From IMG/VR virus record IMGVR_UViG_3300014963_000512: a stretch of DNA of 64,000 nucleotides; one strand, 5' to 3'. Made by a program: the position numbers and the translations under genes. This DNA comes from a virus (lineage: Duplodnaviria; Heunggongvirae; Uroviricota; Caudoviricetes). The notes under the pieces are model-generated. The model did no database searches, was not told the DNA's origin, and was given only the letters and a program-made list of their open reading frames with translations. Shown here one piece after another: positions 32,969 to 39,689 of this stretch. Every line of letters starts with the position of its first letter. Position 1 is the first letter of the stretch.

Positions 32969-33495
32969 CAGTCGAACTTCTCAATACATACGGAATTCTA
33001 CATATAGGTGTTGCCGAGTTCCTCTTTGACCTGGATGACCTCCCAATTATCAAAGGCCGAGACAGTTGGTACTGCGACAAAGACGGTTATCTTGTCAGCA
33101 GCTACTTTTACTGCGGTGTACGGCGGTTTGTCCGCTTTCACCGGCTGGTTATGCACGCAAAGCCAGGCCAGTTTGTTGACCACATCAACAAAAACAAGGC
33201 CGATAATCGAAAAGGGAATCTGCGCTGTTGCCAGCGGTCAGAGAACGACAGGAACCGCAGCCTCTATATCACCAACACATCTGGCGTTTCCGGCGTTTTC
33301 TTTGATAGGCAAAGAGAAAAGTGGGTAGCCAGTATTACCTATAACAGTAAGAAGATTTATCTCGGCAGGTACGATGCTAAAGAAGATGCCGTTATGGCGC
33401 GGCTCACAAAAGAGATTGAGCTTTATCGGGAGTTCGCCCCTCAGAAAGCACTCTTGGAGACACTTAGTCTTTGCTCCAACGGAACTCTGGCATAA
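32965..33495 (+). CDS. HNH endonuclease with a C-terminal AP2 DNA-binding domain (homing-endonuclease-like)
   Basis: Motif HHINKNKADNRKGNLR plus AP2-like SGVSGVFFDRQREKWVASITYNSKKIYLGRYDAKEDA. Confidence 0.8.
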   Translation: MTVELLNTYGILHIGVAEFLFDLDDLPIIKGRDSWYCDKDGYLVSSYFYCGVRRFVRFHRLVMHAKPGQFVDHINKNKADNRKGNLRCCQRSENDRNRSLYITNTSGVSGVFFDRQREKWVASITYNSKKIYLGRYDAKEDAVMARLTKEIELYREFAPQKALLETLSLCSNGTLA

Positions 33496-33774
33496 AGCGA
33501 TAAGGGTCAAGCTTCAGGACGGCACATACAGATAATCCAATCCTCATACTGGCGCCGCTTATGTTGCGCTCTCCATTTTCCAATCTCTGATATTGGCGAG
33601 CCTGAATGTGTGCTGCATCTGCCACCTGCTGCTGGGTCATTCCGAGTTCCTCCCGCCGATTTTTCAAAATATCCTTTTCGGTTTCAAGGAAGAACCACTG
33701 CTCACCATTGTTCAACAGGTCTTCACTGGGAGTTTTATAGGTGTCTTGAAAGTTCATATCAAAATCCATCATAA
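33464..33774 (-). CDS. XRE-family helix-turn-helix transcriptional regulator
   Basis: HTH LGMTQQQVADAAHIQARQYQRLENGER. Minus-strand AGGAG RBS 8 nt before ATG 33774. Confidence 0.75.
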
Positions 33775-33790
33775 TCATATCTCCTTTCAG

Positions 33791-33808
33791 CACGACCAAT
33801 CGGTCGTG
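33791..33808. promoter_or_regulatory. 18-bp palindromic operator O1 (cacgacc-aatc-ggtcgtg)
   Basis: Near-perfect palindrome between the divergent XRE gene and the Thg1-like gene. Confidence 0.55.
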
Positions 33809-33822
33809 CTTTTCTTATATCT

Positions 33823-37059: not shown

Positions 37060-37310
37060 AGAGGCTGTTTGTATCAGACTATGTTGGTTTCGATGAGTCG
37101 GCAACAAAAGCCACGCTGTATTCTTTCGATTCGGAAGATGAGTGCAGAGAGTTTCTCGAACTGTCACATAGCGAGCGATGCCAGGTCTTCAATGTTTTTG
37201 ACGAGAGCGATAACTACGGTGTTCTCCCCGGAGCTGCTTACCATACATACGAGTTTGTTGTTATCGGCGGGATTCTTACTATGTATGATACTCTTGCCCT
37301 GAATGTTTGA
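37056..37310 (+). CDS. hypothetical protein (84 aa)
   Basis: GTGA overlap. Confidence 0.4.
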   Translation: MKRLFVSDYVGFDESATKATLYSFDSEDECREFLELSHSERCQVFNVFDESDNYGVLPGAAYHTYEFVVIGGILTMYDTLALNV

Positions 37311-37324
37311 TGAGGAGGGATAGC

Positions 37325-38347
37325 ATGACCACAGAACAAATCAGAGAAATGCTGCAAAGCCCTGCGTATGAATTTCTCAGAAGTAATGAGCACCTGAAAG
37401 GCAAAATTATTTTTCTCACGCTGGGCGGCAGCTATTCCTACGGCACAAATATTGAAACCTCTGATGTGGATATCCGTGGTTGTGCCTTGAACAGCCGTTC
37501 CGATTTGTTGGGATTGTCCAATTTTGAGCAGGTCGTTCATACGGGAACGGACACCACGGTTTACTCATTCAATAAGCTTGTAAGTCTGCTTCTGAACTGC
37601 AATCCTAATACGATTGAGATGCTGGGCTGTCGCCCGGAGCAGTACATGGTTTGCACTGACATTGGGCGAGAGATGATTGAGAACAGAAAGTTGTTTCTCT
37701 CCAAGCGAGCGGTGAACTCTTTCGGAGGATACGCCAACCAGCAGCTGCGGCGGCTGGAAAATGCTCTCGCCAGAGATAAACTTCCGCAAGCACGGAAAGA
37801 AGAGCACATCCTGAACTCCATGAAGAGCGCAGTCAAGGCGTTTGAAAGCAGGTATCGAGTCTTTGAAAACGGTGGTATTACGCTCTACACAGATGAGAGC
37901 TCACGAGAAGATTTGGATAGAGAGATTTTTGCAGACATTCATCTTACAAAGTATCCGGTGCGTGAGTTCAACAGCATTCTGAACGACTTGACCAATGTGG
38001 TCGGCACTTATGAAAAGCTGAACCACAGAAACCATAAGAAGGATGACCATCATCTCAACAAGCACGCCATGCATCTCATCCGCCTGTATCTGATGTGCCT
38101 GGATATCCTTGAGAAAGGCGACATCATCACCTATCGCGGCGTCGACCTGCCGCTTCTCATGAGCATCCGCAAAGGTGACTATCAACTGGAGGACGGCACC
38201 TATCGTCCAGAGTTTTTCGAGATGGTTTCGGATTTTGAAAAGCGTCTTGATTATGCAAAGCGGAACACAAGTCTGCCGGAACATCCTGATATGAAGCGTG
38301 TCGAGGAGTTTGTGGTCAGCGTGAACAGGAGGCCTCTTGATGCATAA
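37325..38347 (+). CDS. Pol-beta-superfamily nucleotidyltransferase (GS-x9-DxD minimal NTase core plus a C-terminal helical domain)
   Basis: Motifs LGGSYSYGTNIETSDVDIRG and VCTDIG. gaggagggatagcATG. Confidence 0.6.
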   Translation: MTTEQIREMLQSPAYEFLRSNEHLKGKIIFLTLGGSYSYGTNIETSDVDIRGCALNSRSDLLGLSNFEQVVHTGTDTTVYSFNKLVSLLLNCNPNTIEMLGCRPEQYMVCTDIGREMIENRKLFLSKRAVNSFGGYANQQLRRLENALARDKLPQARKEEHILNSMKSAVKAFESRYRVFENGGITLYTDESSREDLDREIFADIHLTKYPVREFNSILNDLTNVVGTYEKLNHRNHKKDDHHLNKHAMHLIRLYLMCLDILEKGDIITYRGVDLPLLMSIRKGDYQLEDGTYRPEFFEMVSDFEKRLDYAKRNTSLPEHPDMKRVEEFVVSVNRRPLDA

Positions 38348-39689
38348 GATTTCTATTCCGAGTGGCGCAAAGGCGATTGTTCTTGGCCTTCGCTATGAAA
38401 ATCATGAGGCTTATGTTGTTGGCGGCTGTGTTCGAGACAGCCTGCTCGGCAAAGAACCGAAAGATTGGGACATCTGCACCTCTGCTACGCCGCAAGAGGT
38501 CAAAGAACATCTCAATCGCTGTAGTGTTCGGACGATTGATACAGGGTTAAAGCATGGTACAGTCACAGCGGATATGGAGCGAGCTGGTAAATACGAAATT
38601 ACGACCTTCCGCATTGACGGGGATTACTCAGATAATCGTCGCCCTGATTCTGTTACATTCACAGAAAGTATTTATCAGGATTTGTCCCGCAGAGACTTTA
38701 CCATCAATGCAATGGCGTATAACAGCGCCGGTCTTATTGACCCCTTTCACGGCGTAGACGATTTGAAGAATGGTATTATCCGCTGCGTTGGAAATCCGAA
38801 TGACCGGTTTAGTGAAGACGCACTTCGTATTCTGCGAGCTTTGCGGTTTGCTTCTGTCTATGGATTCTCGATTGAAAAGAACACGGCGCAGGCCATTCAT
38901 GATAACGCATGGCGGCTTACGAACATTGCTGCGGAAAGAATTCACAGCGAGCTTTGTAAGTTGCTTCTCGGAAACGGTGTCCTCCCCGTCTTGTTGGATT
39001 ATTCCGATGTGATTGCAACTATCATTCCAGAGATGAAACCCTGTGTCGGCTTTAACCAAAACAATAAATACCACCAGTACACCGTCTACGACCACATTGC
39101 TCATGCAGTCTCCAACTACACAGGCGAGGATATCGCTGTTAAGGTAGCACTGCTGCTGCACGATATCGGAAAGCCTTGCTGCTATACCGAAGATGAGAAC
39201 GGTGGTCATTTTCACGGACACGGAAACTATAGTTACGACATCTCCAAAGCCGTTCTGGAACGGCTGCGCTTTGACACCGCGACAAAACAGGAAGTGCTTG
39301 ACCTCGTTTTGTACCATGATGCCGTCATTGAGCCGACGACGAAAACAGTTCGCCGGTGGCTCTGCAAAATCGGTGAACGCAGATTTTCTCAGCTGCTGGA
39401 TGTCAGGATGGCAGATATTAAAGCTCACGCAGAAGGAACGCAGGAGTCCAGAATCGAGCGATGTGTGGCGCTTGGTGTATTGATGTCAGAGATACTTGAG
39501 CAGGAAAAATGCTTTTCCTTGAAAGACTTGGCAATCAATGGCAAGGATATTATTTCTCTCGGTGTGCCGCAGGGGAAACGAATCGGCGTCATTCTCCACG
39601 AGCTTTTGGAGGAAGTCATTCTCGACACGCTTCCCAATGAACACGATGTTTTACTGCGAAAGGCGGTGGAACTTATTGGGCGAACCTAA
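38340..39689 (+). CDS. cca: CCA-adding enzyme / tRNA nucleotidyltransferase with an HD domain
   Basis: Motifs GGCVRDSLLGKEPKDWDI, RRDFTINAMA and HD motif LLHDIGK. aggagg RBS. Confidence 0.85.
   Translation: MHKISIPSGAKAIVLGLRYENHEAYVVGGCVRDSLLGKEPKDWDICTSATPQEVKEHLNRCSVRTIDTGLKHGTVTADMERAGKYEITTFRIDGDYSDNRRPDSVTFTESIYQDLSRRDFTINAMAYNSAGLIDPFHGVDDLKNGIIRCVGNPNDRFSEDALRILRALRFASVYGFSIEKNTAQAIHDNAWRLTNIAAERIHSELCKLLLGNGVLPVLLDYSDVIATIIPEMKPCVGFNQNNKYHQYTVYDHIAHAVSNYTGEDIAVKVALLLHDIGKPCCYTEDENGGHFHGHGNYSYDISKAVLERLRFDTATKQEVLDLVLYHDAVIEPTTKTVRRWLCKIGERRFSQLLDVRMADIKAHAEGTQESRIERCVALGVLMSEILEQEKCFSLKDLAINGKDIISLGVPQGKRIGVILHELLEEVILDTLPNEHDVLLRKAVELIGRT

Follow-up and report, generated by a model that had tools for sequence, protein, structure and literature searches.

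A small XRE-type regulator gene with two palindromic operators as a probable autoregulated cassette antisense to a phage RNA-repair gene string

The 64,000-nucleotide stretch of the Caudoviricetes record IMGVR_UViG_3300014963_000512 analyzed here (the window) carries a small XRE-type regulator gene, xre, on its minus strand. This gene diverges from a plus-strand gene string that runs from a Thg1-like enzyme to a CCA-adding enzyme, and two palindromes, O1 and O2, lie in the gap between them. The available evidence makes it likely that positions 33464-33847 constitute a compact, self-contained, and negatively autoregulated XRE cassette, inserted antisense in the plus-strand phage string, whose repair genes would be largely independent of XRE. 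An earlier note on this DNA had described the region as a repressor-controlled, perhaps inducible, tRNA-repair operon. Part of that proposal stands, since the palindromes travel with XRE homologues, keep their arms, and thus behave as XRE operators. The role of a dedicated operon regulator fares poorly, as the promoter they overlap is that of xre itself, XRE is missing from the sister clade and from 70 other Thg1 loci, and the neighbors of the cassette elsewhere are unrelated.

Both palindromes are present exactly where they had been reported, and they are unique in the 64 kb. O1 is CACGACC-AATC-GGTCGTG, which reads directly as CACGACCAATCGGTCGTG, and O2 is TACGACC-AAAT-GGTCGTG, which reads directly as TACGACCAAATGGTCGTG; the distance between them is 32 bp from start to start. 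The pattern ACGACC-N(2-6)-GGTCGT occurs in the window at these two positions only, with no match in 100 dinucleotide-preserving shuffles, and a search of the 64 kb with two mismatches allowed returned no further credible site of this type. The arms of O1 pair perfectly over 7 bp and can be extended to 9 bp (AGCACGACC/GGTCGTGCT, 33789-33810); those of O2 are perfect over 6 bp, with the seventh position mismatched. Each palindrome folds better than all shuffles tested, and Rfam has no match within the region of the palindromes and the gene string. Scanning the window with a degenerate operator gave 7 matches against 4.5 expected, which is within chance. One additional perfect match to the degenerate consensus RYGWCC-N4-GGWCRY, ATGTCCGGACGGACAT at 44423-44438, lies inside an integrase-like gene and is likewise within chance expectation.

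Beyond the window, the exact double operator was found in IMG/VR in close relatives only (nine matched). The other 18 matches to it come without an XRE match and look like chance occurrences or repeats. Scanning IMG/VR for a single operator (CACGACC-N4-GGTCGTA), which does not amount to a regulon search, gave mostly unrelated contigs among the matches listed, together with two contigs of relatives for which the known site alone was listed. On one unrelated IMG/VR contig (L104, 1591-1680), three CGACC-N4-GGTCG palindromes each adjoin GTTGAGGA or its reverse complement. These may form another operator array; no homologue of the window's XRE family was detected on that contig.

Position 33774, the earlier boundary of xre, is out of frame. 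The gene starts at ATG 33772, located 8 nt after GGAG, which is the sole ATG retained in all ten close relatives, and codon 2 is ATA in most of them. The gap to the Thg1-like gene measures 111 nt (33773-33883) instead of 110. A minus-strand sigma-70 match within it, TTGACA-17-TAAGAT (P_xre), is the highest-scoring promoter across 22.0-40.6 kb. O2 is bracketed by the P_xre hexamers, sitting inside the 17-bp spacer and running into the -10 element, and O1, immediately upstream of the Shine-Dalgarno (SD) sequence, covers approximately +4 to +21 of an xre transcript predicted to start near 33812. With O2 in the spacer and -10 element and O1 between start site and SD sequence, both operators are positioned to repress xre. 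This overlap with the core promoter and start region of the repressor's own gene keeps a constant register in all cassettes compared (Table 1).

Table 1. Coordinates of the cassette, the adjoining gene string, and the upstream RNA-repair block in the window
Feature	Position	Strand	Remarks
HNH-AP2 homing-type endonuclease	32965..33495	+	HNH_3 + AP2; phrog_99 2.1e-38; converges on xre, overlaps xre 3' end by 32 nt
xre	33464..33772	-	102-aa Cro/C1-type helix-turn-helix (HTH) protein with conserved 35-aa N-terminal extension
SD sequence of xre (AGGAG)	33781..33785	-	8 nt upstream of ATG 33772; layout identical in all cassettes
O1, promoter-distal operator	33791-33808		xre 5' untranslated region, between predicted start site and SD; extended 33789-33810 = 9-bp hairpin
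P_xre -10 hexamer TAAGAT	33819..33824	-	TATGAT/TAATAT among close relatives; usually TATAAT in the distant cassettes
O2, promoter-proximal operator	33823-33840		fills predicted P_xre spacer; last two bases = first two of -10
P_xre -35 hexamer TTGACA	33842..33847	-	kept as TTGAC[A/T/G] in all cassettes
Thg1-like 3'-5' nucleotidyltransferase	33884..34678	+	Pfam Thg1 108.8 bits, 2.4e-31; phrog_4717 6.8e-96; SD AGGAGGG 33870-33876
102-aa open reading frame (ORF)	34669..34977	+	no family match (Pfam, PHROGs); overlaps Thg1 stop; 94-99% identity in close relatives, ~46% in some sister-clade loci
Cys-rich small ORF, 83 aa	34988..35239	+	likely start ATG 34988; no family match; ~50% identity in sister clade
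Calcineurin-like metallophosphoesterase	35217..35828	+	Metallophos_2 1.4e-7; phrog_547 1.6e-44
Class-V aminotransferase / cysteine desulfurase-like	35857..37059	+	Aminotran_5 278.6 bits, 9.7e-83
84-aa ORF	37056..37310	+	no family match; no homologue detected in sister clade
RlaP-family (RNA-ligase-associated Pol-beta) nucleotidyltransferase	37307..38347	+	PF10127 8.1e-17; phrog_388 1.5e-53
CCA-adding tRNA nucleotidyltransferase with HD domain	38337..39689	+	PolyA_pol 8.2e-40, PolyA_pol_RNAbd, HD, tRNA_NucTran2_2
Metallophosphatase	16575-17264		upstream RNA-repair block
RtcB	19583-20788		upstream RNA-repair block
ATP-dependent DNA ligase	20785-22077		upstream RNA-repair block
Band-7/SPFH protein	22667-23554		upstream RNA-repair block
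RNA ligase	24381-25466		upstream RNA-repair block

Comparison with relatives supports a role of these sites in protein binding. Ten IMG/VR contigs (L012-L021) share this locus, with proteins 95-99% identical and both dyads kept, and differ in the 4-bp spacers. In each of the ten, the intergenic DNA shows higher conservation than the coding sequence of xre (94-98% vs 92-95%). At the O1 spacer (33798-33801), the window has AATC in common with L013 and L016, and the other close relatives have GATT; the O2 spacer (33830-33833) is AAAT in most of them and ATTT in L018. These spacer changes are exact reverse complements, as expected from hairpin-mediated template switching.

XRE homologues with 54-86% identity were traced to nine further gene neighborhoods. 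All nine display the same arrangement, namely TTGAC[A/T/G], an operator yAYGWCC-N4-GGTCRTA, and a -10 element that is mostly a perfect TATAAT and is opened by the terminal TA of the operator. A second operator abuts the SD sequence in most neighborhoods (L092, L093, L095, L096, L128, L130, and L137); L127 and L133 have the proximal operator in its constant position and no clear second one. Depending on the cassette, the operators are spaced 25 to 34 bp apart, while the register of each with the promoter or the SD sequence is fixed. Cooperative looping between O1 and O2 was considered, as 32 bp corresponds to approximately three helical turns, and was rejected because a fixed phasing is not conserved over this range.

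Among the 17 distinct operators compared across cassettes, the arms are conserved and the 4-bp spacers are free to vary. Both arms of the proximal operator in L096 have changed jointly, from ACGACC/GGTCGT to ATGACC/GGTCAT. Distant cassettes carry arm changes that weaken pairing but retain the GWCC/GGTC core, for example, ACGTCC/GGTCGT and ACGTCC/GGGCAT. Co-occurrence with XRE homologues, conserved arms, free spacers, and the joint change in L096 together support the assignment of the palindromes as operators of the XRE protein. The pattern points to protein recognition tied to promoter geometry, and we infer that an XRE dimer binds the yAYGWCC-N4-GGTCRTA dyad.

The genes around the cassette differ between lineages. 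xre is the lone opposite-strand gene in a long co-directional string in eight of the ten neighborhoods (the window and seven of the nine others), and the distance from the -35 element to the neighbor's start codon is about 28-50 nt in most of them and far larger in L133. The cassette faces an integrase-like gene in L092 and L135, GP88 in L095, and genes for a metallophosphoesterase and a cysteine desulfurase-like protein in L096. Elsewhere it faces small ORFs, followed by Thy1/PcfJ or Thg1 in L130-L132, near DUF1064 in L133, and followed by DUF6291 and a DNA methylase in L137 and L138. L128 has the cassette co-directional with its neighbors. On the bacterial contig L127, the gene of a 477-aa SLFN/AlbA_2 protein comes after xre, and L096-L099 have a 135-aa ORF after xre in the same orientation. 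L095 again has an HNH-AP2 gene just behind the cassette, with a DUF7352 gene between the two. Positions 1-2506 of L096-L099 hold a PemK-family toxin and an MrpR-like tyrosine recombinase beside a CI-like repressor, which hints at plasmid-like maintenance in that lineage.

The XRE protein belongs to a common fold. Residues 36-74 match Pfam HTH_3 (PF01381) at 40 bits against a cut-off of 23 (4e-10), and several PHROG transcriptional-regulator families match as well. The AlphaFold2 model (pLDDT 85) predicts a five-helix HTH core (helices 32-43, 47-53, 58-65, 76-85, and 90-93) preceded by a short helix and two strands. Foldseek aligned this model with SinR, C.BclI, 434 Cro, P22 c2, and HipB at a probability of 1.00, with E-values from 3.6e-3 to 4.2e-2. 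Sequence searching of the PDB gave a marginal MBF1-like match only, and the fold search returned generic XRE domains and no specific structural relative. The 102-aa protein lacks the C-terminal S24 peptidase domain that characterizes cleavable CI/LexA-type repressors. Across 11 sequences, 45 codons of xre vary synonymously only and 7 change the amino acid, a pattern that clearly indicates purifying selection. A lone gene under such selection is expected to be useful on its own. Matches to isolated phages were limited to a 215-nt stretch of Thg1 (Fusobacterium phages) and a weak HTH match (Faecalibacterium phage FP_Lagaffe).

Conversely, the gene string occurs without the regulator. In a sister clade, in which Thg1 is about 70% identical, the same string of Thg1, Cys-rich ORF, metallophosphoesterase, cysteine desulfurase-like enzyme, RlaP, and CCA enzyme continues down to a CI-like gene. 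Here, a plus-strand 166-aa ORF and a serine recombinase precede Thg1 with a 43-nt gap, and neither XRE nor the palindromes accompany the sister-clade string. In one member (L023, 5554-7957), four plus-strand genes separate HNH from Thg1, including the 360-aa serine recombinase and the 166-aa ORF. The HNH-Thg1 interval, occupied by the XRE cassette in the window, is a variable hotspot. At 70 Thg1 loci outside the close clade, a search within 8 kb found neither an XRE homologue (tblastn, E up to 1e-2) nor the promoter-operator signature. Regulator and operon are therefore not kept together, given the sister clade, the 70 Thg1 loci, and the unrelated neighbors elsewhere. As judged by these comparisons, the RNA-repair island exists independently of the cassette.

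These observations fit a simple regulatory scheme. P_xre would drive a monocistronic xre mRNA, and the XRE dimer would act on it at two points, excluding RNA polymerase when bound to O2 and blocking promoter escape or elongation when bound to O1. A strong promoter would thereby be clamped to a low steady output, which might also limit head-on collision with the phage's own plus-strand transcription. Transcription of the Thg1-CCA string most likely comes from a promoter without specificity for XRE, for example, by read-through across the cassette. Any effect of XRE on the string would be secondary, through a roadblock at O1 and O2 or termination at the O1 hairpin. The link between the cassette and the adjacent tRNA-repair genes is thus far a positional one, and none of the results connects the cassette to tRNA damage.

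Several points weigh against this autoregulatory scheme. P_xre and its start site are predictions, and the -10 element of the window (TAAGAT) is weaker than those of its relatives. A scheme in which XRE acts on its own promoter alone does not account for a benefit to the phage. Of the ten cassette neighborhoods, five lie inside RNA-repair islands of related phages, and a loose functional link is thus possible. A transcript can reach Thg1 only by starting over O2 or by crossing both operators, so XRE could still affect the string by occlusion or as a roadblock. Moreover, O1 in the window's clade has gained stability as a 9-bp hairpin (-16 kcal/mol) with a T-run on the plus strand, a feature that speaks against free read-through and may point to a real downstream effect.

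This last point underlies the competing explanation that survives best, in which the cassette acts as a transcriptional gate. Plus-strand transcripts from upstream would be halted by the O1 hairpin and T-run, by bound XRE, or by collision with P_xre, and expression of the distal half of the island would depend on XRE occupancy with no dedicated promoter. As plus-strand RNA, O1 folds into a stem of 9 bp, 6 of them G-C, at -16.1 kcal/mol (z = -7.8), and UUUUCUUAUAU (U-tract, UUUUCUU) comes next. It thus has the form of an intrinsic (Rho-independent) terminator, a stable G+C-rich hairpin with a U-tract, and is the top match of this kind on the plus strand across 22.0-40.6 kb. Nearly all cassettes run antisense to the string around them, in five cassette types O1 is followed by a T-run in the plus direction, and a precedent exists in the HTH controller protein C.Kpn2I, described in PMC6237814 as an elongation roadblock. 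However, the O1 hairpin is weak outside the window's clade, at -8.3 to -8.7 kcal/mol in L092, L093, L095, and L096 and at -5.3 and -4.7 kcal/mol in L128 and L130, where the T-run is missing. Termination hence does not appear to be a conserved property of the cassette, and the A-run on the xre strand may merely be the initially transcribed region. On current evidence, such a gate is unlikely.

The reading closest to the earlier note, in which XRE is the dedicated repressor of the Thg1-to-CCA operon, is improbable. It requires an operon promoter in the 111-nt gap that overlaps the operators, with the genes switched on when XRE is inactivated. The geometry permits this, as only 29 bp separate O2 from the Thg1 SD sequence and any local plus-strand promoter must overlap O2. 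The O1 hairpin and T-run could also stop read-through, in which case the string might need a promoter of its own. A weak candidate exists, GTGATG-17-TATATT (33838-33866, 8/12), with its -35 element inside the right arm of O2. However, this candidate falls to 7/12 (TACATT) in all ten relatives, and its predicted start would lie inside the Thg1 SD sequence. The plus strand of the gap holds no predicted promoter comparable to P_xre and none that is conserved across cassettes, whereas P_xre is near-perfect in all. Positions 33841-33869 show one variable site only in 11 genomes, and this near-invariance is equally explained by the -35 element and an A/T-rich upstream element of P_xre. Absence of XRE from the sister-clade operon and from the 70 other Thg1 loci argues against a dedicated repressor, as does the divergence of the cassette elsewhere from an integrase-like gene, GP88, small ORFs with Thy1, or small ORFs with a DNA methylase.

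Two further searches concerned plus-strand promoters. A better-scoring candidate, TTGAAA-18-CATAAT (33746-33775, 10/12), lies inside the xre 5' coding region, has no equivalent in other cassettes, and was set aside as a probable chance match; the first base of its -35 element varies synonymously (CTGAAA in L012, L016, and L018). Comparison of the gap (33775-33883) with 29 other intergenic gaps for a shared phage-specific promoter motif revealed nothing beyond chance 7-mers.

An elaborated and improbable form of the gate makes the cassette a portable device. Bound XRE, the strengthened O1 hairpin terminator, and head-on P_xre would together render the Thg1-CCA string conditional, and inactivation of XRE through its 35-aa extension, for example, by a signal from host attack on tRNA, would open it.

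A two-gene module (toxin-antitoxin, defense, or anti-defense) in which XRE is the regulator or antitoxin and the partner has been lost or replaced, with the promoter serving the module, is very unlikely. The same-strand 135-aa ORF after xre in L096-L099, the 477-aa SLFN/AlbA_2 protein in L127, and weak PADLOC matches to HTH_VI and a restriction-modification (R-M) control protein are consistent with such a module. However, xre is monocistronic in the window and in seven of the nine other neighborhoods, its 3' end meeting or overlapping a convergent gene. No co-directional ORF follows xre in the window, which thus lacks the adjacent toxin gene of a type II toxin-antitoxin system; L096-L099 and L127 are the only cases with a partner ORF. 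The 135-aa ORF has no Pfam family listed, no library search having been made with it, and purifying selection on the lone xre indicates stand-alone usefulness.

Least credible of all is the proposal that the palindromes serve as RNA or DNA hairpins only, as a bidirectional terminator or a 5' stabilizer of xre mRNA: their folding beyond all shuffles and the two spacer orientations (AATC/GATT, AAAT/ATTT) would suit it, but O2 lies upstream of the predicted xre start and would be outside that mRNA, distant arms lose pairing yet retain the GWCC/GGTC core, the -35/-10 register is conserved and stem strength is not, and the sites strictly co-occur with the HTH gene.

The cassette would work in the manner of classical autoregulated Cro/C1-type repressors, and its logic is akin to that of R-M controller proteins and anti-CRISPR-associated (Aca) repressors. 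Cro/C1-type repressors (434 Cro, P22 c2, SinR-type) share the HTH_3 domain, the five-helix fold, and dyad operators with 6-7-bp arms, one operator being placed between the -35 and -10 elements and the other shortly after the start site. Here, by contrast, the locus has no partner repressor and no bistable divergent switch. XRE also differs in its conserved 35-aa N-terminal extension and in lacking a C-terminal oligomerization or S24 domain, and its gene forms a portable single-gene cassette, antisense inside operons.

Controller proteins of R-M systems (C.BclI, C.AhdI, C.Esp1396I, and C.Kpn2I) are likewise small XRE proteins that bind a pair of palindromic sites close to the gene encoding them. 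The best fold matches of XRE include members of this group (2b5a, 1y7y, and 3ufd), and PADLOC gave a weak match to a control protein. Classical C-boxes are adjacent dyads around the -35 element, which activate and then repress. Both sites of the present cassette, however, occupy repressing positions and lie 25-34 bp apart, and xre has no adjacent restriction or modification genes, its neighbors being HNH-AP2 (convergent) and Thg1 (divergent).

PMC9410906 and PMC8633003 describe Aca proteins as HTH proteins of phages that use inverted repeats in or close to a strong promoter to repress it, which XRE resembles. Bidirectional regulation is reported for Aca11 and Aca13 in PMC12282945. The aca genes lie downstream of acr in one operon, whereas xre opens its predicted transcript and is the sole ORF on it, the leader measuring about 40 nt and no small ORF lying upstream. 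XRE showed no sequence match to a known Aca, although no search aimed at one was made.

The gene string itself is part of a larger system. Pfam and PHROGs bear out the identities first assigned from sequence to XRE, the Thg1-like enzyme, the metallophosphoesterase, the cysteine desulfurase, the nucleotidyltransferase (now RlaP), and the CCA enzyme. The start of the Cys-rich ORF is placed at ATG 34988, within a longer frame from 34943, on the basis of a sister-clade orthologue that begins MSCYKDGGCG. Given the repair genes further upstream (16575-25466), the Thg1-CCA string represents only the distal part of an island of about 23 kb. Ten plus-strand tRNA genes (Ser x2, Ala, Leu x3, Lys, Trp, Thr x2) are interspersed with ORFs at 4936-18182. 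With Thg1, RlaP, the CCA enzyme, RtcB, and RNA ligase clustered, the island has the composition of a putative phage RNA/tRNA-repair system. PADLOC gave no defense-system matches for the operon proteins.

The inventory of phage RNA/tRNA-repair genes in jumbo and large phages given in section 3.4.9 of PMC7824862 matches the island. The likeness extends to Thg1-like, RlaP, and CCA enzymes in one string, RtcB, RNA ligase, Band-7, and many tRNAs upstream. The island differs in its additional cysteine desulfurase-like enzyme and small Cys-rich ORFs, and the XRE cassette is embedded in some lineages only.

Other features of the window lie apart from the cassette. RAGATH-16, RAGATH-4, and RAGATH-36 match above the Rfam gathering score at 164-235, 412-548, and 2333-2461, all on the plus strand. 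Within 12916-15935, ORFs with a Hoc-like/Ig-type match (13628-14437) are followed downstream by a reverse transcriptase gene (RVT_1, 14799-15935), a combination that may represent a diversity-generating retroelement; L130-L132 likewise have an RVT_1 gene near their XRE cassettes. A second minus-strand regulator gene (41586-42392) encodes a CI/LexA-like protein of 268 aa in which HTH_3 is combined with Peptidase_S24. In the 290 nt upstream of this gene lie TTGACA-17-TAGCAT on the plus strand (42424-42452) and an inverted repeat, TTGACAG-N20-CTGTCAA (42477-42510). The integrase-like gene (43589-44539) follows this CI/LexA-like region (41586-42682), and the phage may be temperate.

Together, these findings make separable the regulator and the repair island that the earlier note had merged. 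The tRNA-repair island is an already-known kind of phage counter-defense module, with or without the regulator. The XRE unit would represent textbook negative autoregulation, and its modest novelty lies in the packaging of promoter, two operators, and gene as a portable cassette. This cassette recurs, almost always antisense, in long operons of uncultivated gut phages, and its comparison yields the operator consensus yAYGWCC-N4-GGTCRTA and a predicted promoter architecture. Should the cassette prove to gate downstream transcription, it would provide a simple natural example of modular operon insulation.

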